Shown: in pieces, positions 2,646 to 58,781 of the stretch
Layout: every line of letters begins with the position of its first letter
Position numbering within the stretch: position 1 is the stretch's first letter
Assembly (NCBI RefSeq): GCF_037042905.1
Contig: NC_087251.1
Span: 39,558,001 to 39,622,000 of the forward strand
DNA length: 64,000 nucleotides
Origin: Lytechinus pictus
Taxonomy: Eukaryota
Reading direction: 5' to 3'
Position numbers and translations under genes: made by a program
The notes under the pieces: generated by a model
Database searches by the model: none
What the model saw: only the letters and a program-made list of their open reading frames with translations
Told to the model about the DNA's origin: nothing

Positions 2646-2793
2646 ATGACGCAAGAAGCGAGCAGCCCGCGGCGGAAGAAACCGCTCTCGCCAACCTTTG
2701 ACACGATGGAAGAAGACAAGAGCGCCATCGCTGGTCTCAATCTTCGGAGTGCTCCTATTGACAAACTAGCCAGTACATGTATGGATTGCTTTG
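2646..2793 (+). CDS. RASGRP: RasGRP coding exon 1 ([10 protein letters not shown]...[14 protein letters not shown]), start of REM domain
   Basis: ATG at 2646 just after CAG (2632-34) and TAG (2638-40) acceptors; phase-1 donor G|GTGAGT. The N-terminus could extend from an upstream exon. Confidence 0.85.
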
Positions 2794-17281: not shown

Positions 17282-17348
<67 letters not shown>

Positions 17349-17462
17349 CAGATAGACAGATAGATAGATAAATAGATAGTGAGTGCGTGAGATACAGACA
17401 GAAACAGACAGACAGACAGACAGACAGACAGATAGATAGATAGATAGATAGATGGATAGATG

Positions 17463-17519
<57 letters not shown>

Positions 17520-41500: not shown

Positions 41501-44500
41501 GAGCGAGAGAGAAAGTAAGAAAGAAACAGAGGGGGGGGGGGGAATGAAGGGAAGGGGCTTAGAGAGGAGAAAGATGTAGAGTTCAAGAGAGGATAAGGAG
41601 AAGGGGAAGACTGCGAGGGGAAAGATCTATAGATAAAGAAGGTGAGATAAGAAAGACAGAATTGTGTCTGTATCATAGACAAAAGATAGAAATTGCAGAA
41701 AAGACAGAAAAAGGGATATTTGAACAGACATTGAGAGAATAAGATTAAGTGATTGAGGTTTTTTTTCTCTTTTATGTAGATTGATGGATGGCATGCTTGG
41801 GGACATGAATGAATGAAAAAAAGATACCTTTAGAAGAAGCCATTTTATGTGTATGCACCAAATCAATCTCGACAATGGACGTGTATCAATTTACAATTGT
41901 AATCCATGCATCGGCTTCAAATTTGATCTGTTAGTTTATTTAGATACTTATTGTGTGGAGCAGTGTGGACTGATGGTTCTAACTCTCATGTTGAAACCGA
42001 CAGTCGTGGGTTCAAATCCCAGCCATGGCGAATTTTCCTTCTGCAAGAAATTGGTCCACAGAGTGCTGCACTTAACCCAGGTGAGGGACATGAGTACCGG
42101 CAGGAAGTAATTCTTCAAAAACCTGTGAGCACCGGAATCGGTAGCCAAGATTAGTGGGGGTATTGTAGGAACGGATTGAGCGACCCCCCCTAACAATGAG
42201 GATATCTACACAGATTAATTATCCTAGATATCATCATTATATTATTTTTTTCTTAAACTTTTCCAGGTACTGGATAATGAATTTCCCAATGCACTTTGAC
42301 CTCGACAAGGGGCTGGCGGGGGTCATGAGCCAGCTCCAGAAGATCATCCAATCAGAAGGGAACACACAACTCAAACACGTGGTTGATATCTCCAATGTGT
42401 GAGTAGCATTCTCTTTTAGGTACCCATCTGAATTTTTGAAGCACCACAATGACCGATGAAGATGTTTCGGGCTTTCTGAAATTTGTCTAGATGGAAGAGT
42501 AAATAATCATTGTACATCAAGAAATGCTACGGCTATGGCTTCAGATTTAGATTTCTTTTAACAAATGTTTTAATCTGGATTGCCTTCCGTAGCAATGATT
42601 GAGTTATCATAAGACTTAATAGCGTGAATCTGTAAATTGCCAATTTGTCCACTGCCAACTCATCCACTCACCTCATGGTCTACCTTCGTTTAGTCTAATG
42701 CCATTCAGTCCATCCACATTTCGTCTAATGACCATTTGGTCCAATCATCAATTCGTCTAACCACCAGTTCGTCTATAACCATTTCATCTCGTAACCAGTT
42801 GGCCTAATGTTTGTTTTATTTTCATTCATTTTGCCCAATTAACACTTAGTTTAATTAGACCAAATGGTATATGGACTAAATAGCTATTGGACTAACTGGT
42901 TATTAGACAAAGTGGTGAGTGGACGAAATGGCAATTAGACCATGGTGATATTGGACGAACTGATGGTAGACCAAATGATAGTAGACGAGATGGCAATTGG
43001 ACGAATTGGCATTGGACCAAATGAAAATAAACCGCATAAATCCATGTCATACTATTTAGGGGGGGGTGAAAAAATACTTCATCCCCTCCTCCCCCTGAAG
43101 CAGTAGCGTACCGTGAGCCGGAGGAGACAAAGCATTGGGGGGGCACTGCATTGTTCACAGACAATGCAGTGCCCCCCCAATGCTTTGTCTCCTCCGGCTC
43201 ACGGTACGCTACTGCCCTGAAGTATAGGTTCACTGCTTGGATTTATGCCAGTGAAAAGATTTTAGTCAAGAATGATCGTCAGCAAAATGGAGTGTTGCGT
43301 AAGTCCGATAGCTAGCCTGTCAAACATCTTTGTCTAATAAATTAAGGAAATTTAAGCATCAGTTTAAAGAAAGAGAACTGTGTCATTCCTTGACATTTAC
43401 CTTTGATTCAGTTTCATATGAAAGATTAGGGGTCCATTTCATAAAACTAAAATAGTGAACTTGTCATTGAAATTGTGCATTTGTTATTATAACAAGTCTT
43501 TATGAAAATTTTCCCCAGATACAGAACTTTTGAGACCTGTGATTTTCTTTTTTTTAATTCAGATATTGTCTGCCAAATGAAATGTCAGCTTCCTTTCATG
43601 TGTGGAGTATGTGTCATTATGATTTACCAGATGAAAGAAGAGAGTCTAAACTTTAAAATGATATGTCATTTTTCAATCATGCTTGTGATGGAAATGATTA
43701 TAAAGCATTGGAAATTCTTGATTTCGTTTTTTGGGATTGACTGCATAGCCCTAATTTAGAAGTACCGGTACAACTTCAGCTCAGTATGATGTCAGATTAG
43801 ATACACTATGTTGACCTTACCATGATTATTTGTATTTCAGGCCATCCTATGATTGGATGAGGGTAGTATCGGTCAGGAATCCATCAGTACGAACCAATAG
43901 GAAGGTCTCGCTGGTCTTCAATCATTTAGAACCTAAGGAACTAGCGGATCATCTCACATTCCTGGAATACAAGATCTTCAGAAGATTAAATGTATGTATC
44001 ATTTAAAAAAGATTTTTTTTTTCAAGCAAAGAATGATTAGACCCACATGGTCTAATCCTAGTTCGTCTCTAACCAGTTTGTCCACTAACCATCAGGGGCC
44101 CGTCTTACAAAGACTTGCGATTGATTCAATCAATCGCAGCTATAGAAAGCCAGCAAGGTCAACATATAAAATGCATTTTGCTCAAAATTTTTTCTAGATA
44201 TGAAATGAATGTATATCCATAAATTAATTGATTTCTTGACAGCTCGGTGTGTTCTCCTTTGTTTACAAAGGACATTTTGCATATTTCCTGTAGAAAAAAT
44301 TATGACACTGATGGATTTCCATAGAGTTACGATTGATTGGGTCAATCGTAACTCTTTGTAAGACGGGGCCCTGGTCTAAGTGCCAATTACCCTATTTAGC
44401 ATCCACTTGGTCTAACACCATTTAATCCTATTTCATTTGGTCTTACACCATTCAGGGGGTGTTGATGTTGCAATTTTACAATTGATTGATCACCTTTAGG

Positions 44501-47500
44501 GCCCCATCTTACAAGGAGTTGCTATTGATCCGATCAATTGCAACTATGGACGGCCAGCAATGTCAACATCCAAAATGCATGTTTGTTCAAAATATTTTTA
44601 AGCTATGATGTATATTCATGCATTAATTGTTTTCTTAAAAATTCACTGTGCTTCTCTTTGTTTACAACTACATTGTGCAAATTTCCGGTATAAAAATTTA
44701 TGACACTGATGGTTTTCCATAGAGTTATGATTAATTGAATCAATCGTAACTCTTTTTGAGACGGGCCCCAGATTACACTCCTTGTTGCAGGATTAGATCA
44801 GCTCCCAACCACAAATTTTTAATTAACATCAAGACATATGATTGATTTAGTGAATGAAAGTAGACTTGCAATTGATCGCAAGTTTCTTGCAATGGCCAAT
44901 AAGTCTATATGGTTTGATGAACTGTTTAATTGACAAATTGCAAAATGATTAGAAGATAAGGGGGAAATTAGATCATTTCTACAAACGATTTAATGAGAAT
45001 TAGGTTATGTGGGTATTTGATCAAGTGGATTACCAAACGGCAATTAGACCAATTGGTTTTAGTCCTTGTGGTATTAAACAATCTGAAAAGTAGACAAACT
45101 GCTGTAATCTTTACACTTAATATAAGTATAATACTTAATTTATTATTTAGTTGTAATTGTTCTGGATATCTCATACATGTATTTCCTTTTCTTAATTTAA
45201 TTTTTGTATGCAACATATCAGTATTACTATCTTTAACTGTTAAGTGGAGTGTTCTCTATCAATAAATCAATAAACTGAAATTGTCTTTTCTCTCCTCTCT
45301 TTTCTCTTGGCCAGTTTGCTGATCTGAAGAGTTATGCCCTCTCTGGTCAGTTAAAAGACAACTTAAAGCTTGAGCGATCCATCGGTCTCTTCAACGGCCT
45401 CTCGCTGTGGATAGAATGCATGGTTTTAAGTAGACATACGCCTAAACAGAGAGCAGAGGTCATTACAAAGTTTGTACATGTGGCAAAGGTAGGTTGAAAT
45501 GGTCATGCAAACAATGCAATTCACAAATTTATTATTGTATTATTATATTTGAGTTATTTTAAATTTCAAATTTAAATTCACTCCCATAAAAACTGTTAAA
45601 GTTGCATTGACATGGTATGTTTCTTATATTTATGCATTTAAATCTCTCAAAAATATTAGGTATTATTTTATTGTGGTTTACAAGAGATGATTTTGTTGAT
45701 CTGTTTCTTAGAACTGTCCCTGATTGTCTGATTAACAAGGGGTCACGAAAGGTCATTACTTCTGCTTAATAATTATTTTTAATCAAGAATATAGGGCATT
45801 TAATAGTACATATATATTGCAACACCCTGATTATTCTCTGTTTGATTTTGGCAATGGTTCTTGTTTGTTTTTGAATGAAACAGAGGTTACGGCAGCTGAA
45901 TAATTTCAATACTTTGATGGCTGTGGTCGGTGGTTTGAGCCATAGTTCCCTGGCGAGGTTACGGCAAACATCTGCTCATGTCTCATCAGAAACGCAGAAG
46001 GTAATGTTTTAGCTTTCCATATTCCATATGGCACTTAATACATAAGTCATCAGCGAAGTTTGATATAATTTGATAAATTCGTCACGATCCTCCACTTCCA
46101 TTTCTCTCATTCCCCCCCAAAAAAAATTAAAAAATCCAAACCCTTGGGTAAAGATCATTTGTTCACTCATCCTCTTAGTTATGGAACAGCCTTCCTGAAG
46201 ACATTAGAATTTACCTCCTGAAACTAAAAAAAAAACACCTAACAATATTTCTGTTTAATTTTTCATAATTTCCTTTAACATCTCCTGAAAAGCTCCTTGA
46301 GCACTCTACAGAGTGAATTTGGCTTGATATTAGTCCAATATTTTATTATTATTGTTATTATTATTATGGTGATGATGATGGTGAAGCTGAATGTATGAGC
46401 AACTTTGCAGATGACTTAAAAATAGAAAGTAAAAAATAGCTTTTAAATATTTTCCCCCTCAGTCGGTATATTATGTAGTTGGGGTTATTGGAGGAACAAG
46501 AAAACATTTGTGTGAAAATATAATGGAGACACATACCTCCCTGCATCCCTCTATGCATAGGACCATGACTGTATGTCTCATTGTATTTATGTTAGATTAA
46601 ATCGGATTTAAAATCTGGAATTCAAATTTCATTCTAAACCTGGATGACTGACTGAATATCGAAAGTGATTGATTTATGGTTTGTGATTTTTATTTTAGTA
46701 GGTTATCATGATCATGATCCGATGATATGTGGTTATTTTTCATGTTTAGATCAGTTCAGAATTATCAGAGATGTTGTCATCGGCAAGTAACTTCAGCAAT
46801 TACCGAAAGGCTCTAGCGGAGGCAAGAGGATTCAAGATTCCTATCTTGTAAGTACTAATAAAGAATGATATTCCACTTTGTATAGGCGCTTAGGGATTTA
46901 CATATACAGTATCACAGTTATTGGATCTTTGCTTGTTCACTGTACATTGTATGCACTTTCTCCACTAACTGCAATAGAAAACCCTAACATGCTTTATCCT
47001 TTTCAGTCTCATCAGCAATATATAACATAACATTCAATTTGAAATCTCTGAGAGTATCTGTATTTGAGTAGATTGGATATTGATGATATGGGTTCTAATA
47101 TATTTTGTAGGATTATAATGATACCACATCAAAATCCACTCTAATATAATCTTTTTATAACTAATAAACAGGTTTAAGCTATCTGTCTTTGTTTTTCTTC
47201 GTTTTTATTAATATATATTTTGCTATACATGTATATTATATGAATAAAGGTTAGCTATTATATTAAGAAATGTTCTATCGTATTTTTATACATTTTCAAA
47301 TATTCTAGATATATTTTCTTAAAATGTTCATATATTTTCTCAAATAAGCGTATAGGTGGAAATTGTTAGCAATTTATCAATGTGGATGGATACATGTAAG
47401 TGTGTATCCTCATATCAACTGTATTCAATTTGACTCAGGGGCCTGTTTCATAAAGACTTCTGATCAAGGTAACTTTGCCATTGTGCATACCATGGTAACA

Positions 47501-49877
47501 TGGCTCAACAGCCAATCTTAATCAAGATTTCCATGGTAGTTTCCATAATGGCAGAGCTCCAATACTTGTAATTCTTTATGAAACTATCCCAAGATCATCG
47601 CGCAAATTGGCGTCCATTCCCTCTTTCGCCTGCCACCGGGTTAAGACATCAGATAAGTGCACTCTCAAAAATTGCGATATAACGTATATTTTGGGACTCA
47701 TATTTTGCCATTCGTTCTCCCTTTTCCAATCTAACCTTTTTTGCGTTTAGATTGTTCTTCTTTATATCCCCAGCGAGGAGCTTTCGTGTTGATTTTTCAT
47801 GATTTATTCCCTATTTTCTTGTGAGTGTCTGAACCTTTTGATTCGTTCCTCGCAGACGGGTTGCCTCGCTCCCCCCCTCCCCGCAGCCTCCGTGCTCTCC
47901 TGCGTGTCTCGGGTGTCTGTTCGACGCTTGAATTTAATTTGTTCCTTCTCCGAAAAAGAAGAAATCTTCGCCTGGGCGAATCCTTGTCTGATTCTTGTGC
48001 CGATGGCCAGGCATCGCAACTTTTTAAGTTGCTCCAGAGCGCCTTTGAGCACTACGGGTTTTTACCCCCTCGCTCCTCGTCAGCTTCAGCCAACGGTGTC
48101 ACCCAATACCGAGCGGACCAAGCAGACACCAGCCATCCTGCACCTCGGGGAGCATCCAGCGACTCATACGAGTCGCCGGCTCTAGTGCCTACACGGGAAT
48201 CTCCTGTGAACATACAGGCGCTGCCGACTACTGGGGTTCGTCCCAGACGGCTTCTTCTGGTTCTGTTGAGTTTTTTCTAGCTCCCCCTTCGGATCTTTCC
48301 TCGGTTACAGAGGACAAGTTTGGTGCCCAGTCCGGGCCTTGAAGAGGTATCAAGGAAATTCGCAACTCTAATCAGTTGTTTTTACTTCGCATGAGCCGTT
48401 CGCAGCAGCATCTCATGATACCATTTCACGCTGGATTGTGGAAGCATTAAAGTCAGCTGGTGATGACGCTCTCTTTTCTGACACTCGGCTGAGGGCCCAC
48501 GATACCAGGAGTATCGCTACGTCTTGGGCTCTGTTCAATGGAGTCGCTTTAGACGACATTCTGAGGACCGCTTTCTGGCGCTCTGCCAATTCCTTTACGT
48601 CTTTTTATCTAAAGGATATTCCGTCGGGCGAGGCATTATTTGCCTCTTCTGCCTTGAAGGCAGTGGACCCCATGTCTCCATCTCCCTAATTTTTGCGCAC
48701 TTTCTCATATTTAGACATGCTTCCCTTCTCATTGAGTCTGTGTTGGTCTAGCAAGTCAAATGAATATATCCCAGTTATAAATAGTAAATTACGAAAATAG
48801 TTACCATGATTTTCTTTTTTACGAGATAACTGGATATATTCATTTGAACCTTCCCACCGTCCCCTCGTCTTGCGTGGCAACATACATGTATCTCTTGGTT
48901 CAGGCTCATAAGAGGAAATGACGCCAATTTGCGCAATGATCTAGGAATAGTGCGTACGTAGGGAGATGCAGCATGCGCACAGGAAAAATTGTGTGCACAC
49001 TATTCGGTGTGCAAGTTAATCGCAATGAACTAGCAAAGCAAATGAATATATCCAGTTATCTCGTAAATAAGAAAATCATGGTAAGTATTTTTATAATTCA
49101 AGACAGTATGTAGGCTTTCGAAGACTTTGCCTGTTCACACTCAATTCCCTTCATACAATATTACATTAAAAAAAAACCACACTAACAAGAAATTAATGTT
49201 TATTCGGGATGTGGTTTTGGTTTTTCTGTAGCAATACAAATACACTTGTTCCTTCCAATTTCATATATATATATATATATGTATATATACCTATGCAAAA
49301 TTTTGGTTCTATGGCTTGAATTAATCCTCCTTATCTTCTCTTTCCTTTAATTCCATGTGGCTTCTCCTCTTCTATGTCTTCTTTATATAATCAGAGGTAA
49401 GTCTGTTAACATCTTTTTACCTTATGATGAAATTTGAAGAAAAAAATGCTGGTATTTGTATGTACAAATGTATATATTTGATCTAGACTGATTTAGATTT
49501 CTAGAAGTCAAAGAGATGAAATCCTGTTAAAATGAGCTATAATGATTCTCAGTGACCCACCAGGGATTCTGTAGGTTTTATTTAACAAGTCATTGTGCAT
49601 TTAGCTCATTTCCATTTATAGCTGTTTGAAGCTAAAAAGAGGACATATTGTAATTGGAGAATTGTCATCAACTGTATGGTCTAGATTTGTTATTTCTTCC
49701 TAACTGAATGTAACTATTGAATAACTTTGCTAATTACTTATATGCAAGTAGCAATTATTAATGTTGTCATTATCATCATCATCTTTTTCATCATCACCAT
49801 TGTTATTGTCATCATTATCTTCACCATCGTCATCATCATCATCCATCATCATCATTATCATCATCATTGCTGTCATC

Positions 49878-49909
<32 letters not shown>

Positions 49910-52900
49910 CATCATTGCTGTCATCATCACCATCATCATCATCATCACCTTCCACCTCATCATCATCGCCATTATCATCATTGTTCCTTTTTGCTTACAT
50001 ATTCTAAAGTCATTAACCATTCTGTTTTACTTATTTTTATCTCCTCTCTCATAAAAAATGTTATGGCCAAGGTCGGATTCCTCTTTCAAATGAGGGTAAC
50101 CATTGATGCTGATGTATTTTTTCTTAATGATCATTATTTCCTGTCCAGGGGTCCACCTGAAGGACCTGATCCTCCTGCACACAGCCCTCCAGGACAAGAC
50201 AGAGGATGGTCACATCAACATGAGGAAGATGGCCCAGCTCTCTGTCACCTTCGCTGAACTCATGCAGCTCCAGAACTGCAAGCAACCTCTTGCCGCCAAC
50301 ATGGACCTAGTTAACATGCTCAGGGTGAGGGAAAATTGCCACCATGGCCCGTAAGACAAAGCTTAGCAATGATCATAAAACATTTTTGAACGATTGATTG
50401 AATTGGCTACAATCAATTGTGAAAATCATGCGTACGATTGATTGCTAAGTTTTGTGTTACAAGACCCAATGGCTATCAGAATACCGTACAATGGCCCATA
50501 TTCTGAAGTCAGGTTAACTTGGACCACGGTCTAAGTCTGTGCTAAAATTATGGGGGATTGAAAAATTCTGTTTCTATTGTATATTTCTTATGTTTACTAT
50601 TTTGCTTTCATAATGAAGAAAAATACTTCAAAATTCTTCATTTATCCCTTCTAGACAATTACGAATAATTTTGTGTGTCATTTGAGTTAATAAATTGGAT
50701 GTGTACTGTTAAGGATTTGTGCCCAATCGGCTCTCCATACTTAAACCACAACTTTAAACCAGGGTTTAATTTAAACCCGAGTTCAGAATGCGGGCCTATG
50801 GGTTTATCCCATGTAGTATTAGACTGTCTGAGAGGTAGACCAATTGCTTGTAGACAAAGTCAATATACACCAAGATAAGATCAGGGCCCCGTCTTACAAA
50901 GATTTGCGATTGATCCAATCAATCGCAACTATGGAAAGCTTGCAAATTCAACATATAAAATGCATGTTTATTTTTTTTTTAATTCTAGATATGAATGTAT
51001 ATCCATGAATTGATTGATTTCTTGACAATTTGGTGTGATCTCCTTTGTTTACAAACGCCATTTTGCAAATTTCCTGTAGAAGAAATTATGACACTGATGG
51101 ATTTCCATAGAGGTACGGTTGATTGGATCAATCATAACTGTTTGTAAGACGGGGCCCCGAGGAGCATTTCATCATGAAAGAGTTAATCTGTGATTTTCAC
51201 TGACTAGTTTGCTCTTGGCCAATCAGATACAAGGATTTCAGAAGCTTGTAACATTTGTCGATGAAAATCACCGACAAAGCTTCATGAAACACACCAAGGG
51301 CCTTTTGTTGCTTTTAAAAGTCATTATTAACCGTATCAGACTTCTGAGCAATGTCACTGTTACATTTTGTTAACCTGCTTTGGAAAACCATAGAAAGAGC
51401 AAAAAGGACCAAGTTCTGTATTTGTATGACTTCAGATAATTGAAAAACAAAACATACATAATAGAAAACAAATACACAATGTCTTTCTTGGATCCAGCAA
51501 ATTTGGGGTATTCAGAGACCTAAAATAGTAACCTTTCCCTTGAGGCAACTTTCCATCAAACTTATGGTATCCTCGGCAAGCCTCAGGGATAGTGAATTGA
51601 TTGATGGCCCCTGGGAAAAGTTCTTTGTTACCCAATCCTTGAAGACATAAGCTTTGCCGTCCCATTGTAAAATCCATTGAATCCTTGATTTTGATTGGCT
51701 GGTGAGCCGTTGTTACCACAGTACTTACCATACGGTAGTTTCTCAAGAAGTGGTATTATCTTTAATGCTCTTTATATATTAAAAAAAACTCTTTTAGGCT
51801 TCATTGGATCTACAGTACACTGAGGATGAGATCTATGAATTGTCCCTGGCCAGAGAACCAAGAAATTCAACCAGTACTGTAAGTTTATGATTGATATGAA
51901 AAGTTCAATTCATGCAATTTTGTTGCCAGTTGGCAGCCATTGGAACAGTATTCATTCATTACTTATGCTAAAATCTGATGTCAACTCACATCAAATGAAC
52001 TTAAGTACTTGTGAAATCGTTTTGTTTAGTAGGATTCAATCACTATATTCAACATTTACACAGGAGATCTGTCAGAAGTATACAAGAAATTGATCCACAT
52101 AGTGCTGCATTCAACCCAGGTAAGGTGAATGCATACCATGCAGGATAAATTCCATGAACTTACTGAGTGCTGGAATTGGCAGCTTGAACTTAAGCCAGGG
52201 TGATGATATTAGAGCGCTTCTGAGACGATTGTTTCTAGATAGATCATGTTGATACATTCTATTATTGTTACTACATGTATTATTTTCCTTTGTATCATCA
52301 TCATAATCATCTTCGTCATCATCATAATCATCTTCATCATCATCATTATTATCATCATCATCATCGCAGCCATCATCATTATCATCATCATCATCTTCTT
52401 CTTCATCACCATCATCATCATTATCATAATCTTCATCATTATCATCATCATCATCACAGTCATCATCATCACAGTCATCATTATCAAAATCATCATCATC
52501 ATCATCACCGTCATTATCACCATCATAATCATTATCATCTTCATCATCATCATCACAATCATCATCTTCACAGTCATCATCATCATCATCATATTCATGT
52601 TCATCATCATCTTCATCATCATCATCATCATCATCATCACAATCATCATCATCACAGTCATCATCATCATCATCATCATCATATTCATGTTCATCATCAT
52701 CATCATCATCATCGTCATCACAATCATCATCAGCCATCATTATCATCATCATCATCACAATCATCATCACAGTCATCATCATCATCATCATTATTATCAT
52801 CATCATCACAATCATCAGCCATCATCATCTTCATCATCATCATCATCATCATCTTTATCATCATCATCACAGTCATCATCATCATCATCAGAACAGTCAT

Positions 52901-53541
52901 CATTATCATCATACGTGTTAATTATCATCATTATCATCATTATCATTCTACATAACAAGATTACTAATTGCCAATTTGTGGTTTGAATGATAGCCCCCAA
53001 CCCCCACCAAGCCTGCAGTGTTCGCAGAGTGGGCAGCCGGTGTGTCGCGGCATGCTGACCAAGAATCGATCGCCAAACATGTGACTGCTATGGTAGAGGT
53101 GAGTACAGATGAAATGAAAATGGTTAAACATTAACTTTCAGTGGAAAAAATAATATGCTACCAGAAAAAAAAATGTACAACTTCATGATAATGTTTTAAC
53201 AAATTGATATTTAAAAGGGAAAAGGTTTTTAGAATATTTTTGGAAAACTCAACAGAGATACAATTCCTGATGTCCTCAAGAAAGCTGTTCCACAATGCTG
53301 GGTATGCATGAGCAAGGGATTATTTCTACCAACTTTGTGGAATTATATGGGAACCAAATGTTGATGAGCGTATAGATCCAATTGGTCTGTAGTAATTGAT
53401 AAAAAAAGTTATTTATAAGCTGTTAACTCTAATTACATATTACCTCACTTCATATCCTCAGTGTAACCATTCTGGCGTGATGTAAAAATAACTGCAGGCA
53501 TATCAAGCCTTTTTTATAATAAGGCCATTGAATGTATGTTC

Positions 53542-53581
<40 letters not shown>

Positions 53582-56500
53582 ATATATATGATGCAATGGA
53601 ATCCCAATCCAGCTCCAATTTCATTAACGTTTATATATGATTCCCTACAAGTGAGACCTTCTCCACTTTCAATTTCTTAAGAAAAGTCATAATGCGTTTA
53701 GATTATCATGGCTTGAACAACTATTGAAGAGAGGCAAGAATGGAGATAAAAGTGGATCAGGCACACCAAAAAGTTGTTTATTATGGAATCACATAATACT
53801 ACTACTACTAATAATAATAATGTGACTTATAAAGCGCCAAATCCACTCTGTAGAGTGCTCAAGGCGCATAAAGAGTTAAATAAAAATGTTTTTAGAAGAT
53901 TTTTGAAAGTCTTGACAGAGGTACATTTTTTTATGTCTTCAGGAAGGCTATTCCACAAAGTGGGGCGTAAAAAATCAACTGATCTTTCCCCCCAAGTTTC
54001 GAAACTTTTGGAATAACAACGAAGCCAGAAGTGGATGAGCGCAAAGACCTGCTCGGTCTGTAGTAAATGATAAATGAAAGACTGTATTGTGGTGCTGATC
54101 CAAGTTAACTATGAAAAGCAAGCAACAAAATCTTTAAAAAATAGATGTTATTATTGATCATTATAGAGTCATTGTACACCCCTCAGAATATAGTACCCTG
54201 ATTTCTATTGTGGTTCATTGCCTTTATGCAAACATGTCTTAAGTGCAAAGGGAGTATGCAGTAATCACCTACTTCTGGGAAGAAAACAATTTTTATGTCT
54301 TCAACTTCCGAACAAAATCAAGCAGTAAAACCACACTTATTACATATTTTCAGACGTGAGTTAAATAACAACGTCTGCTTTGCTTGATCTTGTCTCGTCG
54401 AAAGGAGTCTCTGGAGCGCTATTCATCACCAGTAGAGGGAGATCTTCGCCATGTGCTTGTAAAAATAGTCGACCTGTGCCCTAATTACGTGCAGAATGCA
54501 CTTTGGGAATTGGTAGCCGGAATTGGGTTGCATCCATATAAGGTCACTTACAGTTATATGAAGAATCCTTATATCTGAATTCTCATCCCTATGTCAAAAT
54601 GCTTTGAAATGGATTATGAAATAACAAACTATAATCAAGGAGTTGTGAAATTTTAGAATGCTTTAATAATTTAAATCAAAAAGTTTTGATTTTTTAATTA
54701 TGGGTTGTTACATAATTTTTGTCTCACCTGCAAAGCAGAGTGGGACTATAGGTGCCACTTTTCTGACGGCGGCGTCAACATCAAATCTTAACCGAATGTT
54801 AAGTTTATGAAATGACAGCATAACTTAAAAATATATGGACCTAGTTCATGAAACCTTGACATAAGGTTAATCAAGTATTACTGAACATTCTGCCTGAGTT
54901 TCAGGTCACATGACCAAGGTCAAAGGTTATTAAGGGTCAATGAACTTAGACCATGTTGGGGGAAATCAACATCAAAATCTTAACCTAAGGTTAAGTTTTT
55001 GAAATTTCATCATAACTTTGAAAGTATGTAGACCTAGTTCATGAAACTTGGCCATAAGGGTAATCAAGTATTACTGAACATCTTGTATGAGTTTCAAGTC
55101 ACATGACCAAGGTCAAAGGTCATTTAGGGTCAATGAACTTTGACCATGTTGGGGATATTTGTTGAATTACCATCATAACTCTGACAGTGTATGGATCTAG
55201 TTCATAAAACTTGGACATAAGAGTAATCAAGTATCACTGAACATCTGGTGCTAGTCAAAGGTCATTTAAGGTCAATGAACTTTGGCCGTGTTAGAGGTAA
55301 TTATCAAATTGCTGTCATAACTTTCAAAGTTTATGGATGTAGTTTATGAAATGTGGACATAGGGGTAATCAAGTATCACTGACAAGTCTTAGATCACATG
55401 ATCAAGGTCAAATATCATTTAGGGTCAATGAACGCAGTATTGTTTCATTATATGAATCGTGTTTTTTGTGAATAATTATTTTATAGTAATTTTCAAAGTC
55501 AGCACTGCTGCTATATTGAATCGTGTAATGCAGGTGAGACTGCCAGAGGCGCTCCACTTCTTTTTTCTAATTGCCATGGTTTTATCTAATAACTGATCAT
55601 GGCAGCCTGTAGACTGAAGTACATTCTGTTTACAAGGTACAAACATCAAGAGAACACATTTACAATGAAATAATACTTTGAGGTTTTCTTTTCTATTTCT
55701 CCTGTTTGATTTCTCATTTATAGGCCGTGTTCAAGAATTATGACTTGGATAAGGATGGCTTAATTACATACTCCGAGTTCCAGAGTATAGCGACCAGCAA
55801 TTTCCCTTTTATGGACTCCTTCTGTGTGCTTGATGCGGATCGGTAAGTACCTTTTAGGAATTCTTGTTGGTTATTTATTAGCCATCAGTGCAACTTCACT
55901 TCTTAGTACATGTGCAATTCTCATTTTTTGGTGTAAATTTTCAAAGCTGATAATTTTTTATCATGACAGCAAGGATATAATTGATTGCTTGAATGGTGCG
56001 ATAAGAGATTTTTTTTAACACAGAAGGCCTTTCTCATCTTTGTTTCCTAATATAAAACCCTTGAAACCAGTTGAATTCTTATAAAAGAGGAAAATCAAAG
56101 AAACAGATTAATGAAAGTTTGAGAAAGATTGAATGAATAATAAGAACGTTATCAGTGTGTCACAATCACTGGTATATTTGCCTGTTTTGATCTTTCACTT
56201 GAGATGCTACAAGCTTTCTCAGACTTTTCTCATGATCATTGATATGGTGAATATCTTCAATAATGAGTTATTATCAAAGACTATGTTCATAATGCTAGAT
56301 TCCTTATTCACTTAGTCTACAAGCAGTGGGTCTACTTCTCAGATAGTCTAGTACCACATGGGCTAAACCCTTTTGGTCCAACTTCAATGTGGTCTACACA
56401 ACACTTGGTCTGTTACCAACTAAGTCTTATTGTCATTAATGGTAAATAGGCTACATGGCAATGACACCAAATGGTTAGTAGATGAACTGATTGAAGCCAA

Positions 56501-58781
56501 CCTGGGAATAGACCAAACGAAATGTAGCCAAACTAGAATTAGACGATGTGGAATGAGTCCTTACAGAAAGTAGAACAAAGTTGGTGTAGACCAAGTTGCA
56601 ATGTACCACTGCTTCTAAACAATGTCTTCACTGGCTCTTCTGTTGTCACTCCCGTCCCATCCAGGGATGGCCTGATCAGCAAGCAGGAGATGCAGTCCTA
56701 CTTCGTGCGCGCCCACAGCCTGGCCCTCAGCACGAGCTTCAAGCACACCTTCAGCGTCCACACCTACTTCAGCCCGACCTTCTGCGTCCACTGCACCGGC
56801 CTCCTCTGGGGGCTCATCAAGCAGGGGTACAAGTGCAAGATCTGCGGAGTCAACGCCCACAAGCACTGCAAGGAGAGGGTCGTCATGGAGTGCCGCAGCA
56901 AGAAGTCCCTCGGCCTCAACGGCAGCATGGTCATGTCGTCCTCGGGCACGCAGTCGCCCACAGGGGGCGCCCTGCAGCGGAGGCACACGATGGACGGTGG
57001 GGGTCCCATCATGAATGGAATGAATGGGCTAAATGGGCACAAGGAAACAAATGGCAGTAAGTGAAATAAGCATAGTATACCGGTATTGGTGCAAAGATAC
57101 AATTATGTAGGCCTAATGTACTTTTCATTTATTGCTATTCACATGAACGCAAATCTATGTAGATTTTATTTTTCATAATCACGCTTTGTTGAACATGTTC
57201 ACCTTGCCAGAATATTGTTTTAGAAGGTAGTAGTACATAGATGAAAGATGATATGATATAAGATGCATACGATTGAAAGATTAAGATTACTATTATAGAA
57301 TCTCGACAGTAATACTTACATATTGGTATTTAAAAAAATATTTGATTTTTTTGGTGGAATGTGTATCAATGATAATTACCAATGTCAGGATCATTCTATA
57401 TGAATCAGATTCAGGAAAACACCCTTCATTTTTATGATCAATTTAATGGAATAAATTTGAATGAGTGTTATGAATGTGAATTGCATCATTGCAGTGTTGT
57501 GCAATTTAAAAAAAAATTGAATGTTAATTTTTCCCATTTCCACCATCCCTTAGCAACTAAAACTAAGAACATGTCCTGGGAAGACAAGAGACGGATCTCA
57601 CTCCGTCAGAAGACACGTCTGATCGAGACCGCCACACAGACGGAAGACCTTATACCCAACACCCCTCCAGAATCAGACAAAGAATCAGAAGAACATGAGA
57701 TGGAGGTCGACCAGGGGCACGACCATGGTGGAATCATCTGTGATGGACGACGGTTAAGTGAACTCAGTGAGGATGAGAGTACGAGTAGTTTTGGCGACCA
57801 CGGAAGCACGGCAGGAAGTGATTCAAGCGTCTTCTTGAGGTCGCCGAAGCCCGATTTGAAAGAGAAATTGATGATGGCTGAAAGGGTGAGACTAATAAGA
57901 CCTTGGTTTGCTTGAAGTCTTGGTAGAAATTACTCTAAAATAATTTAACATCAGGAATATATTTTGAGTGATGTAGTTAAGAAAAAAAAATGTAACAAAT
58001 TTTGTTGGACTTAATTGTGCTTTTAGGTATGTACACTATATCCTTTGATTCCATGGAATATGTACAGCCTACCTCCTATTTGCGGAACCTTTCTAAAATG
58101 ATTTTAATCTGTTTTCTAGTTCGTATGAAAAATTGTAATGCCCTCATATTAAGTGAAGTAAGAATGGAGAAAAATAGGGGTTGACGTACAAAAAAATTGA
58201 TTATTTTATATTGCTCATTTATTTTCCTGGTAACATTAATTTTAAAGTCTGTCATATCCATGGTGATTTATTTTTCAAAACCTGAATGATGGCTGTACTG
58301 ATATGTAATGAAATGTGTTATAAAGGTACAGTATTGACCTTACATTTTCAAAGGTAAATGCATTTCATTTCCAAAAAAAACAGTAGACTCCCCTTTCTAA
58401 AAGTTGAATAGAAATATATAGGGATGTCATTTTCATTCAGACATTTTCGAACAATTTTTTTTTTTTGGCCATACGTATAAAGCATCTTTTTCATGCAGGA
58501 AAGGGGTCATTGTAGATTATTTTCACACTTTTTAATCTATTCTATGTGGCATCCCATTACATAGTACCTTCCCCCTGACACCTCTCAATTGCTTATTCTA
58601 TTATCGGCAGGATCGGGACTCGCTGCGGGCCGAAAACAACAGACTGAAAGAAGAGATGAAGGGAATCAATATGAAGAACCAGCAGTTAGAACACCAGTTA
58701 GAAATGGTCAAGAGACATACGGTGTCATTTATTATTGACCAAATGGACTCGATTCATGTGCAGAAAGACACGACAGTCTAG
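2646..58781 (+). CDS. RASGRP: RasGRP-family guanine nucleotide exchange factor (RasGRP1/3-like), 16 coding exons, ~804 aa
   Basis: Manual join of 2646-2793, 5076-5181, 23807-23917, 42267-42398, 43841-43991, 45315-45488, 45884-46000, 46750-46847, 49395-49396, 50149-50324, 51798-51878, 52994-53098, 55724-55842, 56665-57056, 57554-57885, 58611-58781 = 2415 nt, open frame. Recognisable RasGRP motifs: [84 protein letters not shown]1 domain. Confidence 0.95.
3626..3936. mobile_element. PIF/Harbinger-like MITE, family A
   Basis: TIR GGCCCGTATTCTGAAGTC / GACTTCAGAATACGGGCC with TAT target duplication. Related copies at ~5290-5545 (partial) and 50493-50796. Confidence 0.85.
5076..5181 (+). CDS. RASGRP: RasGRP exon 2 ([35 protein letters not shown]), REM domain
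   Basis: ttttccag acceptor matches phase 1; exon ends at the U12 donor |ATATCCTTT. Confidence 0.9.
5591..6325. mobile_element. Non-autonomous TIR element (Kolobok-like) carrying a LINE 3'-end insertion (~5781-5985, minus strand)
   Basis: Long inverted arms, right end ...cattcct|TTAA. Second copy at ~13019-13570 begins TTAA|AGGGATGGTCCAGGCTGAAAA and lacks the insertion. Confidence 0.65.
6556..6949. mobile_element. Kolobok-like non-autonomous DNA transposon
   Basis: TTAA on both sides, AG...CT termini; close copy at 38010-38404. Confidence 0.8.
6955..7455. repeat. ~160-bp degenerate tandem repeat, ~3 copies
   Basis: atgctcat-aaaagatt-cttg-aaa and ctagctatca-caa-ca recur. Confidence 0.65.
7641..7810 (+). 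mobile_element. SINE with 7SL(Alu-domain)-like head, B box and (CA)n tail, inserted in a MITE end
   Basis: ggcgttgtggcgtgcgcctgtaatccaagct resembles the 7SL 5' end; ggttcgagccc B box; 9-bp TSD CATACAACA at 7632-7640 and 7811-7819. Confidence 0.7.
11813..12030. mobile_element. MITE (Harbinger-like)
   Basis: TIR GGGGTGTTGCAAGAAA / TTTCTTGCAACACCCC. Confidence 0.75.
13019..13570. mobile_element. Kolobok-like palindromic element, right end truncated (same family as 5591-6325)
   Basis: TTAA|AGG start; extensive identity to 5591-6325. Confidence 0.65.
17160..17608. repeat. (AGAT)n/(AGAC)n compound microsatellite
   Basis: Directly visible. Confidence 0.95.
18768..18965. repeat. Purine-rich (AAG/AGG/AAC) low-complexity tract
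   Basis: Directly visible. Confidence 0.85.
19040..19256. mobile_element. Small TIR element with TAACCC-like internal motifs; related copy at ~30212-30408 in opposite orientation
   Basis: tttgctcc...caattgctcc at the left end, gagcaattgt...agcaaatgt at the right end. Confidence 0.55.
23807..23917 (+). CDS. RASGRP: RasGRP exon 3 ([37 protein letters not shown])
   Basis: Follows the U12 branch site and AC; 111 nt, phase 2 to phase 2; donor AA|GTAAGT; links in frame to YWIMNF of exon 4. Confidence 0.9.
24208..24365. repeat. Exact 79-bp tandem duplication
   Basis: 24208-24286 repeated at 24287-24365. Confidence 0.9.
24401..24670. mobile_element. Harbinger-like MITE, family B (~270 bp)
   Basis: TIR GGCCCCGTCTTACAAAGAG, CTG-type flanks. 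Copies in opposite orientation at ~44095-44371, ~44499-44769 and ~50884-51158. Confidence 0.85.
28267..28564 (+). mobile_element. tRNA-derived SINE, near full length
   Basis: A box tggcccagtgg, B box ggttcgaatcc, body ...ccaggtgaggtgaatgggtacc..., (ATT)n tail. Relatives at 32781-33052 (-), 36351 (+), 41957 (+); fragments at ~3176-3245 (-) and ~52090-52270 (+). Confidence 0.85.
29093..29276. mobile_element. MITE (Harbinger-like)
   Basis: Inverted arms ggccc-attc-caa...tttgaatctgtggtttg / caaaccacagattcaaaa...gaattcgggcc. Confidence 0.7.
29746..29904. mobile_element. Harbinger-like MITE, family C (~155 bp palindrome with central agccaatca)
   Basis: CAG-flanked palindrome; relatives at 41304-41460, 47438-47590, 58850-59001, ~7480-7640, ~51160-51295. 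Confidence 0.75.
30551..31697. repeat. 26-bp minisatellite (CTATTATGACTRGCGACCCTCTTCTA-like), ~40 units, degenerate at the right end
   Basis: Directly visible 26-nt period. Confidence 0.92.
31880..32460. repeat. ~80-130 bp pyrimidine-rich degenerate tandem repeat
   Basis: Recurring ccatc...cca-ggtcttacttgacacca-a-tttt core. Confidence 0.7.
32781..33052 (-). mobile_element. tRNA-derived SINE (same family as 28267)
   Basis: Reverse-complement match including B box (gggattcgaaccc). Confidence 0.8.
35255..35790 (-). mobile_element. 5'-truncated L2/CR1-clade LINE 3' end
   Basis: Minus-strand peptide [39 protein letters not shown], typical of an L2-type ORF2 C-terminus, with frameshift; (ATT)n tail. 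Confidence 0.8.
36351..36604 (+). mobile_element. tRNA-derived SINE interrupted near its tail by a MITE
   Basis: gtggctcggtgg A box, ggttcaaatcc B box, ccaggtgtagtaaatgggtacc body. Confidence 0.7.
36605..36757. mobile_element. MITE with CAGGGGCCGC termini
   Basis: TIR CAGGGGCCGC / GCGGCCCCTG; 5-bp duplication TATTG. Confidence 0.75.
38010..38404. mobile_element. Kolobok-like element (copy of 6556-6949)
   Basis: TTAA duplication; AGG...CCT termini. Confidence 0.8.
38855..39790. mobile_element. Kolobok-like non-autonomous DNA transposon, 936 bp
   Basis: Perfect 16-bp TIR GGACGTTCCACAGTTA / TAACTGTGGAACGTCC flanked by TTAA. Confidence 0.88.
39970..40810. repeat. ~190-320 bp degenerate tandem repeat; another unit at ~37905-38475 is split by the 38010 element
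   Basis: Recurring gagttac-cccttctgc-tcca...tgatca...aactatgaaggg and caatcaatattgctattagtgagagaaa. Confidence 0.65.
41304..41460. mobile_element. Harbinger-like MITE, family C
   Basis: gtttcataaaggacttgcaactgt / acagttgcaagtcctttatgaaac inverted arms. Confidence 0.8.
41957..42248 (+). mobile_element. tRNA-derived SINE ending just upstream of exon 4
   Basis: Homologous to the 28267 copy. Confidence 0.75.
42267..42398 (+). CDS. RASGRP: RasGRP exon 4 ([16 protein letters not shown]...VVDISNV)
   Basis: ttttccag acceptor, GTGAGT donor, phases match. Confidence 0.93.
42631..43033. mobile_element. Foldback-like element built of TAGACCA/TGGTCTA short repeats; fragments at ~44040-45100 and ~56315-56610
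   Basis: Left half rich in cgtcta/ggtcta, right half rich in tagacc/ggacga. Confidence 0.6.
43101..43214. mobile_element. hAT-like MITE, perfect hairpin
   Basis: Two perfect 54-bp arms, 6-nt loop, 8-bp TSD CCCTGAAG, CAG termini. Confidence 0.92.
43841..43991 (+). CDS. RASGRP: RasGRP exon 5 ([12 protein letters not shown]...[10 protein letters not shown]), REM-CDC25 linker and start of CDC25
   Basis: tttcag acceptor, GTATGT donor; strong family motifs. Confidence 0.95.
44095..44769. mobile_element. Two family-B MITEs (~44095-44371 and ~44499-44769) nested in older repeats
   Basis: GGGCCC-GTCTTACAA termini. Confidence 0.8.
45315..45488 (+). CDS. RASGRP: RasGRP exon 6 ([11 protein letters not shown]...[10 protein letters not shown]), CDC25
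   Basis: Pyrimidine tract plus CAG acceptor, GTAGGT donor, 174 nt, phase 0. Confidence 0.95.
45884..46000 (+). CDS. RASGRP: RasGRP exon 7 ([29 protein letters not shown]...), CDC25
   Basis: Canonical CDC25 NNFNTL motif; CAG and GTAATG sites. Confidence 0.95.
46750..46847 (+). CDS. RASGRP: RasGRP exon 8 ([22 protein letters not shown]...FKIPI), CDC25
   Basis: tttag acceptor; phase-2 donor TT|GTAAGT. Confidence 0.93.
47583..49098 (+). mobile_element. Internally deleted DIRS1-like tyrosine-recombinase retroelement
   Basis: Inverted repeats ~47583-47624 / 48911-48952; internal segment 48787-48846 complementary to the terminal 49040-49098; YR C-terminal peptide. Confidence 0.8.
48322..48689 (+). 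pseudogene. Disrupted tyrosine recombinase C-terminus (DIRS type)
   Basis: CPVRALKRY, then after a frame disruption [10 protein letters not shown]...[12 protein letters not shown]...[10 protein letters not shown] (H-x-x-R, W and catalytic Y positions). Confidence 0.8.
49395..49396 (+). CDS. RASGRP: Putative 2-nt micro-exon (AG), RasGRP exon 9
   Basis: ~60-nt pyrimidine-rich tract, then tcag|AG|gtaagt. It converts the phase-2 donor of exon 8 to the phase-1 acceptor of exon 10, giving TT|AG|GG GTC CAC = L-G-V-H. Confidence 0.75.
49750..49985. repeat. (CAT)n microsatellite
   Basis: Directly visible. Confidence 0.95.
50149..50324 (+). CDS. RASGRP: RasGRP exon 10 ([13 protein letters not shown]...MDLVNMLR), CDC25
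   Basis: tttcctgtccag acceptor (phase 1), GTGAGG donor. Confidence 0.93.
50493..51296. mobile_element. Cluster of Harbinger-like MITEs (family A 50493-50796, family B ~50884-51158, family C-like ~51160-51295)
   Basis: TIRs match copies elsewhere in the window. Confidence 0.8.
51798..51878 (+). CDS. RASGRP: RasGRP exon 11 ([27 protein letters not shown])
   Basis: End-of-CDC25 motif; ttttag and GTAAGT sites. Confidence 0.95.
52290..52946. repeat. (CAT)n microsatellite, ~650 bp
   Basis: Directly visible. Confidence 0.95.
52994..53098 (+). CDS. RASGRP: RasGRP exon 12 ([18 protein letters not shown]...KHVTAMVE), CDC25-EF linker
   Basis: Matches the RasGRP P-x-x-P...W-A-x-G-V linker; TAG and GTGAGT sites. 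Confidence 0.93.
53800..54140 (-). mobile_element. 5'-truncated L2-like LINE 3' end
   Basis: Minus strand encodes a ...[11 protein letters not shown]...[14 protein letters not shown] peptide; gagcactctacagagtgga tail motif shared with a + strand fragment at ~46150-46365. Confidence 0.7.
54719..55562 (+). mobile_element. Helentron/HINE (DINE-1)-like non-autonomous element with ~170-bp internal tandem repeats
   Basis: Sub-terminal inverted repeat GTCTCACCTGCA (54721) / TGCAGGTGAGAC (55529), short 3' extension, T-run flanks, ~4 internal units (ggtcacatgaccaaggtcaaaggtca). Confidence 0.6.
55724..55842 (+). CDS. RASGRP: RasGRP exon 13 ([19 protein letters not shown]...CVLDADR), EF-hand 1 and start of EF-hand 2
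   Basis: EF loop [12 protein letters not shown]; phase-2 donor CG|GTAAGT. Confidence 0.95.
56665..57056 (+). CDS. RASGRP: RasGRP exon 14: EF-hand 2 (DGLISKQE) plus complete C1 domain
   Basis: H-x12-C-x2-C-x13-C-x2-C-x4-H-x2-C-x7-C; phase-1 donor A|GTAAGT. Confidence 0.96.
57554..57885 (+). CDS. RASGRP: RasGRP exon 15, acidic low-complexity tail with ETATQTE motif
   Basis: cccttag acceptor (phase 1), AGG|GTGAGA donor; open frame. Confidence 0.88.
58611..58781 (+). CDS. RASGRP: RasGRP last coding exon: coiled-coil-like segment ending QKDTTV*
   Basis: ggcag acceptor (phase 0); heptad-like [32 protein letters not shown] at 58779-58781. Confidence 0.88.
   Translation, partial: DRDSLRAENNRLKEEMKGINMKNQQLEHQLEMVKRHTVSFIIDQMDSIHVQKDTTV

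Follow-up and report, generated by a model that had tools for sequence, protein, structure and literature searches.

How an intact protein can be read from two exons whose reading frames do not fit together is the question raised by a RasGRP3-like gene of the sea urchin Lytechinus pictus. The gene lies complete on the + strand of the window, a 64-kb stretch (64,000 nucleotides (nt)) of contig NC_087251.1 in assembly GCF_037042905.1 (positions 39,558,001 to 39,622,000; all coordinates below are counted from its first letter), with 16 coding exons and a coding span of 2646-58781. When exons 8 and 10 of this gene are joined directly, the frame is left two nucleotides short. Here we report that the mature mRNA carries exactly two extra letters, AG, at this junction, and that these letters most likely come from a 2-nt exon at 49395-49396, set between two canonical GT-AG introns. 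The geometry of the site suggests a two-step order of splicing, and comparison with other species suggests that the frame gap is an old feature of the gene in echinoderms.

A two-nucleotide gap in the reading frame

Exon 8 ends in phase 2, its 3′ end reading TTC AAG ATT CCT ATC TT/GTAAGT with the last base at 46847 (slashes mark splice borders), and exon 10 starts in phase 1 at 50149, in the context tcctgtccAG/GG GTC CAC. In alignments to three RasGRPs of solved structure, the last full residue of exon 8 corresponds to I306 of RasGRP1, I306 of RasGRP2 and V308 of RasGRP4, and the first such residue in exon 10 to V309, V309 and V311, respectively. In all three proteins exactly two residues, or six nucleotides, separate these positions; with TT from one exon and GG from the other, 2 nt are missing. 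Exons joined without AG give a frame-shifted coding sequence (CDS) of 2413 nt whose first stop is the TGA at 50255; exons joined with AG give a CDS of 2415 nt that encodes 804 residues and has no internal stop.

Adjusting the splice sites of the two exons does not close the gap. Use of an acceptor upstream of exon 10 is blocked, because a TAA lies in frame at 50097 and the sole AG within 50097-50148 is the exon 10 acceptor itself. A scan of GT and GC donors and AG acceptors around both exon ends returned one in-frame pair, joining the GC at 46821 to 50163, which was rejected: it deletes conserved residues and scores 117, compared with 152-237 at the 13 other scored junctions (the scan returned nothing for the junction of exons 6 and 7, which was placed by eye). 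No acceptable canonical alternative was found among the GT and GC donors and AG acceptors near the ends of exons 8 and 10. The original prediction, made from the letters of the window, had described the clash of phases, the frameshift into the TGA, the blocking TAA and the lack of a phase-2 AG near exon 10, and all of these are confirmed in the sequence and by the reconstruction.

Inclusion of AG would convert ATC TT plus GG GTC into ATC TTA GGG GTC (I-L-G-V), restoring the invariant RasGEF segment FKIPILGVHLKDL. The protein reconstructed in this way matches Strongylocentrotus purpuratus RasGRP3 (P0001) at 753 of 812 aligned columns, and the public L. pictus model P0077 (679 residues) is an exact substring of it, covering residues 126-804 and spanning the exon 8/10 junction. 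The correct residues are therefore already present in public protein models, and the junction is implicitly annotated.

The mature mRNA carries AG at the junction

Four sequencing runs were aligned to the window: X1 and X11, which consist of RNA-type contigs, X22, which consists of raw RNA reads, and X2, a DNA-type run from a related organism, B. The stretch 49762-50004 was skipped as a repeat in these alignments; contig-level statements here and below hold among the contigs, joints and differences listed. The run index lists no RNA run for 45250-51950, all shares being at most 0.19.

The junction is read directly by X11 record 10 (468 nt, depth 5.58), in which window 46748-46847 aligns at record positions 289-388 and window 50147-50323 at 112-288. 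The two pieces are contiguous, with zero letters between them, and read ATCTT-AG-GGGTCC. In X1 record 3 (250 nt, depth 11.9, 0 differences) the aligned piece begins at 50147 as well, with 43 more record letters beyond it. Another X1 contig, record 7, is identical to the window over 742 nt spanning intron and exon, which identifies X1 as the window's own species. In the 811.7-Mb assembly, probes for exon 8, exon 10 and the region of the micro-exon each occur only once; a retrocopy or a second haplotig was accordingly rejected as the origin of the contigs, and, as the assembly holds no retrocopy, the X11 and X1 contigs represent spliced RNA. The mature mRNA thus carries exactly two extra letters, AG, at the exon 8/10 junction, and the contention that an intact RasGRP needs two additional nucleotides is borne out.

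These two letters are the same as those of the exon 10 acceptor, so the aligner places them at 50147, and the junction as aligned takes the form of a GT..CC intron at 46848-50146. For this reason the complementary DNA (cDNA) junction proves that the mRNA is in frame and does not prove where its two letters come from. The inclusion junction CCTATCTTAGGGGTCCAC, which had been put forward as the sequence to seek in cDNA, was found; it is not in itself proof of a micro-exon, since a GT..CC intron gives the same cDNA.

An intronic site that could supply the two letters

Within the 3301-nt interval 46848-50148, the sequence TCAG/AG/GTAAGT occurs at 49391-49402 behind a pyrimidine-rich tract, confirming an arrangement that had been noted earlier (AG, AG and GTAAGT at 49393-49402). 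Read as splice signals, these letters would divide the interval into two introns, 8a and 8b, each with canonical GT-AG ends (Table 1). No AG lies between the candidate branch point of intron 8a and 49393, leaving the AG of TCAG as the first past the tract.

The site stands out from its surroundings in several respects. Its donor matches the consensus CAG/GTAAGT at more positions than any other in the gene, where 13 U2-type donors reach 5-7 of 9. Its 60-nt pyrimidine share is matched by only 0.3% of the 3674 plus-strand AGs, and its 40-nt share ranks in the top 1.0%; the 13 real U2-type acceptors of the gene have shares of at most 0.78 (40 nt) and 0.68 (60 nt). Counting both strands of the 64-kb window, the motif AGRGGTRAGT has two matches, and since the second is the true exon 12 donor, the micro-exon site is the sole non-exonic match; shuffled sequence yields a mean of 0.30 for the window, and about 0.008 would be expected on one strand of this 3.3-kb interval. 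The joint chance expectation of the site's features is ~2e-5, a rough figure in which the features are taken as independent.

We consider a 2-nt exon at 49395-49396 the most likely source of the AG, because this site combines the best donor, the richest 60-nt pyrimidine tract and the sole non-exonic AGRGGTRAGT with so low a chance expectation. The micro-exon that was originally proposed is therefore the best-supported site by its signals, although the cDNA alone does not fix it as the source.

Overlapping signals and the order of splicing

The binding site for U1 at the micro-exon donor, GAG/GTAAGT (positions -3 to +6), would take in both micro-exon letters as well as the G that ends the acceptor AG. 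With acceptor and donor overlapping in this manner, the two introns would not be recognisable at once and would have to be removed one after the other. The 1-nt exon of Arabidopsis has been discussed in the same terms (PMC4674806). From this geometry we infer a two-step, ratchet-like removal. In the favoured order the upstream intron would go first: exon 8 would be joined at the first AG past the pyrimidine tract, which lies in the favoured context TCAG, and exon 8 with AG would then rebuild a strong donor, TAG/GTAAGT, to be spliced to exon 10. Such a site would amount to a ratchet point shifted by two bases, with two letters staying in the mRNA. The reverse order is also conceivable, in which intron 8b would leave first and TCAG/AGGGGTC would remain as an ordinary acceptor.

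Sequential splicing, as originally suggested, is reasonable in view of the overlapping signals, and no intermediate of it was seen among the contigs listed. In the X11 run, the bin 49282-49505, which holds the micro-exon, has a mean depth of 3.28 and both neighbouring bins have 0; this could reflect a splicing intermediate or an unrelated fragment. X1 shows the opposite distribution: its depth is raised towards the 3′ end of intron 8b and close to zero at 49282-49505.

Signs of the frame gap in other echinoderms

The phase of the exon 10 acceptor was compared using 28 short translations, which gene callers had predicted on unspliced genomic contigs and which run on past the acceptor into GVHLKD. 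Left out of this set were proteins of at least 200 residues, which are spliced models (P0005 among them), and short open reading frames that start inside the exon (P0054, P0055, P0057, P0059 and P0069). The residue before G is R in 23 of the 28 translations and S in 2, corresponding to AG/N GGN GTN, an ordinary phase-2 acceptor that fits a TT/ donor. None of these 25 exceeds 68% identity to the window exon, and nor do the named non-echinoderm proteins; named echinoderm proteins are 71-95% identical to it. The other three translations are echinoderm-like: P0003 is identical to Asterias here, P0056 is 96% identical to Acanthaster, and P0053 is 76-80% identical to echinoids and asteroids. They have L, P and T before G, the window having P, which fits a YAG/GN GTN acceptor two bases further on.

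Sea cucumbers show a related pattern. In Apostichopus japonicus the annotation divides RasGRP3 into two proteins, both assigned to a contig of length 462121, and the division falls exactly at this junction, P0073 ending in GFKIPIL and P0005 starting with METGGVHLKDL. The end of P0073 (...FKIPIL) is that expected from TT/GTRA read through to a stop, and two sea-cucumber-like proteins from transcripts, P0006 and P0008, read straight through the junction as FKIPILGVHLKDL. Taken together, the two-base frame gap seems to be an old feature common to echinoderms, as judged from these translations. In the starfish-like P0003, an inspection by eye of the 99 upstream in-frame residues revealed none of RGK, EVS, RGE and GVS, the AGAGGTAAGT-like readings, which means only that intron 8b is longer than ~300 nt there or that its donor differs.

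A constitutive exon agrees better than a switch with a gap that appears to be ancient and common to echinoderms. The micro-exon is probably constitutive and, going by the acceptor contexts and the split gene model, probably present in several echinoderm classes. The fuller proposition, that an obligatory 2-nt exon, the shortest animal nuclear exon proposed, sits at a shifted ratchet point and has been kept across echinoderm classes since their common ancestor, we regard as evenly balanced between true and false. Echinoderm classes diverged on the order of 450-500 million years ago.

Alternative explanations

Several observations weigh against a 2-nt exon at 49395-49396. A single GT..CC intron explains the cDNA equally well. 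The transcript contigs differ from the window at four positions in exon 8, compared with 0-1 differences in exons 6 and 10, and therefore derive from another haplotype. On the donor side there is no independent DNA, the depth of X2 being 0 in 46818-47041; at the micro-exon itself, organism B has coverage of 49381-49520 from X2 contigs 19 and 20, with the site near contig ends, where differences go unlisted. Neither a splicing intermediate nor a lariat was seen among the contigs listed, and the raw RNA run X22 has a depth below 0.5 on exons 8 and 10. The comparison across echinoderms rests on protein translations rather than DNA, and in sea cucumbers the G that precedes GV would call for a GAG acceptor, which is unusual. 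Finally, a skipped isoform may exist outside the joints listed.

A minor skipped form of that kind is what a regulated switch would produce. According to this idea, which formed part of the original prediction, skipping of the micro-exon, or use of the second AG so that the exon has zero length, would yield a frame-shifted mRNA prone to nonsense-mediated decay and so tune RasGRP output. The letters AG/GTAAGT at 49395-49402 do have the form of a zero-nucleotide ratchet point, and skipping would bring the stop at 50255 into frame. We nevertheless hold the switch to be improbable: the in-frame form is the sole form among the contigs listed, the second AG has G at -3 and follows a first AG, and the apparent sharing of the gap among echinoderm classes fits a constitutive exon. 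An acceptor with G at -3 (GAG) is the least used context. This part of the prediction is left without support.

Less probable still is a single non-canonical GT..CC intron (46848-50146), in which 46847 is joined to 50147, exon 10 begins A GGG GTC and the intronic AGAGGTAAGT site is unrelated. This is exactly how the transcript contigs align (46847, then 50147), and it would keep the ancestral phase-2 position seen in the 25 R or S translations taken as non-echinoderm. Minor non-canonical junctions make up ~0.08% of events, according to the available part of a review (PMC13149111, citing Parada 2014). The donor of such an intron would be GTAAGT, which is of the U2 type and, unlike the intron 2 donor, not a U12 motif. 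At the other end, the AG of exon 10 is preceded by C in the window and, in the three echinoderm-like contexts, by C, C and T; by this preference for YAG the exon 10 acceptor would appear to be one that is used, and a cut before the AG would leave a terminal dinucleotide that differs between species (CC, AC, TT or CT). The U2 spliceosome is not known to cleave before, rather than after, an AG. A GT..CC intron would moreover leave unexplained a site that has the best donor, the best tract and precisely the letters required (~2e-5), when a fully canonical path through two introns exists for the same mRNA.

The third possibility is that the window holds an assembly error or a null allele with a 2-bp deletion, the expressed allele reading ATC TTA G/GTAAGT at the end of exon 8 or having the two letters at the 5′ end of exon 10. 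Frame problems most often stem from indels in the assembly or in an allele. In keeping with such an allele, both RNA runs show the four differences in exon 8 that mark another haplotype, and it is on the donor side that X2 has no coverage (46818-47041). On the acceptor side, X2 record 22 covers 50016-50331 and has all five of its gap letters at 50060 and 50094, which indicates that this side is sound, with no indel. P0077 is identical over 679 residues, and its name carries no low-quality flag, the mark that RefSeq gives to repaired frames. The sea-cucumber gene is split at the same place, its upstream model ending in FKIPIL; echinoderm-like acceptors have the same shifted phase; and the intronic site would have to be a coincidence of ~2e-5. 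We regard this explanation as very unlikely.

The least likely source is the other AG/AG/GT site, with its two letters at 48345-48346 (ttgaAG/AG/GTATCA, from 48343), which would give the same mRNA and is the sole other AGAGGT in 46848-50148, yet has a 40-nt pyrimidine share of only 0.50, an AAG acceptor and a donor, GTATCA, that is weak next to GTAAGT, lies in or beside a repeat-like open frame (48049-48339), and falls in a bin (48162-48385) of zero depth in X2, the DNA-type run from organism B.

Relation to known short exons and ratchet points

A 2-nt exon at 49395-49396 has its closest counterparts in a plant and a fungus; the comparisons that follow refer to the available parts of the papers cited. 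Arabidopsis APC11 has a constitutive internal exon of 1 nt, for which GFP reporters and point mutations of its single base gave proof; the authors of that study propose that the introns are removed one after the other, through intron definition and recursive splicing (Guo and Liu 2015, PMC4674806). The two exons are alike in being too short for exon definition, in lying between two canonical introns and in being essential for the frame; that of APC11 was missed by annotation. The proposed sea-urchin exon differs in that it belongs to an animal, has two nucleotides instead of one, and consists of the same letters as the downstream acceptor AG, which makes the cDNA ambiguous. In Fusarium, the P450 gene CYP621A contains a 1-nt exon (AG/G/GT) between short introns, documented with public RNA reads and by conservation in related species, at the DNA level in 24 genes (PMC12940212). 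There, as here, a conserved motif and its fixed spacing are kept solely through an ultra-short exon; unlike in the fungal case, conservation of the 2-nt exon is deduced from protein translations only.

The arrangement of the site also recalls the zero-nucleotide ratchet points of long Drosophila introns (bioRxiv 10.1101/006163; PMC8605326; reviewed in PMC13149111). Here, AG at 49395-49396 directly abuts GTAAGT at 49397-49402, the form of a ratchet point, and the likeness extends to the pyrimidine tract, to a YAG that abuts GTAAGT, to the donor rebuilt after the first ligation and to the stepwise removal that is proposed. As these sources describe them, ratchet points leave nothing in the mRNA, are found where introns are very long, and need a cryptic recursive-splicing (RS) exon; the smallest recursive intron is longer than 97% of fly introns (PMC13149111). 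In contrast, the sea-urchin site would leave two frame-essential nucleotides in the mRNA, and the interval is only 3.3 kb long. As candidates for a competing donor downstream of the micro-exon, only weak ones were found (CTG/GTATTT at 49451, and others at 49588 and 49709, each 6 of 9). The proposed site would work like a ratchet point but is not of that class; its kind is the ultra-short micro-exon.

Among animals, human MPC1 has a constitutive micro-exon of 4 bp (PMC9929638), and the shortest animal micro-exons named in the available part of a 2026 review measure 3-6 nt (PMC13149111). The 2-nt exon resembles that of MPC1 as an animal nuclear micro-exon whose length is not a multiple of three and which is, probably in the present case, constitutive; it is shorter than both the MPC1 exon and the shortest class in that review. 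A full-text literature search for 2-nt exons, for micro-exons with recursive splicing and for sea-urchin micro-exons found no 2-nt exon described.

If the 2-nt exon is real, the proposed lower size of an animal nuclear exon falls from 3-4 nt to 2 nt, and an animal case joins the two published 1-nt exons of a plant and a fungus. The site would be a natural substrate in which 3′ and 5′ splice sites overlap, forcing an ordered, ratchet-like splicing in an intron of 3.3 kb, and would allow the rules of recursive splicing to be tested outside the giant introns of flies and vertebrates. Any 2-nt exon that ends in the usual AG would be absorbed by the next acceptor in alignments and would mimic a non-canonical GT..NN intron; further 2-nt exons may therefore hide in the output of annotation pipelines and in catalogues of non-canonical splice sites.

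Structure and identity of the gene

The gene was mapped with the S. purpuratus protein P0001 and its splice sites were refined afterwards; for exon 8, a search with the corresponding region of P0001 gave 2 of 16 candidates. The RasGEF family PF00617 of Pfam is recognized in exon 6 (35.6 bits) and exon 7 (42.8 bits) above the cut-off of 23.1, and exon 8 scores 17.2 bits, under that cut-off. Exon 13 matches the EF-hand PF00036 (29.4 bits), and exon 14 matches the diacylglycerol-binding C1 domain PF00130 (60 bits). The order of the RasGRP family, a RasGEF domain with EF-hand and C1 downstream, is the one found in the window gene, and the best relatives of solved structure are RasGRP1, RasGRP4 and RasGRP2. 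By its predicted domains (RasGEF, EF-hand and C1), the gene codes for a sea-urchin Ras/Rap exchange factor of the RasGRP3 type.

Table 1 Coding exons and splice features of the RasGRP3-like gene in window coordinates
Feature	Position	Strand	Details
Coding exon 1	2646-2793	+	
Coding exon 2	5076-5181	+	
Coding exon 3	23807-23917	+	
Coding exon 4	42267-42398	+	
Coding exon 5	43841-43991	+	
Coding exon 6	45315-45488	+	
Coding exon 7	45884-46000	+	
Coding exon 8	46750-46847	+	RasGEF domain; phase-2 end ATC TT/GTAAGT; covered by X11 record 10 and X1 record 2
Proposed intron 8a	46848-49394	+	2547 nt; GTAAGT...TCAG, canonical GT-AG
Polypyrimidine tract	49325-49392	+	Pyrimidine share 0.75 (40 nt), 0.78 (60 nt)
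Candidate branch point TTAAT	49347-49351	+	A at 49350, 44 nt before intron end; motif match only
Micro-exon acceptor AG	49393-49394	+	Context TCAG
Proposed coding exon 9, AG (2 nt)	49395-49396	+	Would complete TT-A (Leu346) and start G-GG (Gly347)
Micro-exon donor GTAAGT	49397-49402	+	GAG/GTAAGT, 8/9 match to CAG/GTAAGT
Proposed intron 8b	49397-50148	+	752 nt; GTAAGT...CCAG, canonical GT-AG
Candidate branch point CTGAT, intron 8b	A at 50112	+	Motif match
Candidate branch point TTAAT, intron 8b	A at 50127	+	Motif match
Exon 10 acceptor AG	50147-50148	+	Letters identical to micro-exon
Coding exon 10	50149-50324	+	Phase-1 start GG GTC CAC (G-V-H-L-K-D-L)
Coding exon 11	51798-51878	+	
Coding exon 12	52994-53098	+	
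Coding exon 13	55724-55842	+	
Coding exon 14	56665-57056	+	
Coding exon 15	57554-57885	+	
Coding exon 16	58611-58781	+	

The public model P0077 starts at a Met encoded at 42277, in exon 4. Missing from it are 125 N-terminal residues that the window encodes in exons 1-3 and that agree with the proteins of S. purpuratus and L. variegatus. The annotation pipeline may have failed at the N terminus of this model because of the gene's two 18-kb introns, of which one is of the U12 type. The U12-type intron is intron 2 (5182-23806, 18,625 nt), an AT-AC intron with the 5′ end ATATCCTT at 5182-5189 and the branch site TCCTTAAC at 23789-23796; its AC end, at 23805-23806, follows 10 nt past the branch motif.

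Around exon 8 (window 46748-46847), the contigs of two RNA runs suggest a possible divergent haplotype. Long simple-sequence tracts occupy 1399-1865, 49762-50004 (in the proposed intron 8b) and 52243-52983, and give open frames rich in His/Ser or in Ile/Met on both strands. Very high-copy repeats lie at 46146-46369, 47490-47713, 48610-49281 and 50400-51300, the last of these in the intron after exon 10. In the bin 50850-51073 the summed contig depth reaches ~757,000 in the DNA-type run and ~59,000 in the RNA-type runs, with many inverted and skipping joints; these high-copy repeats are presumably abundant, transcribed mobile elements.

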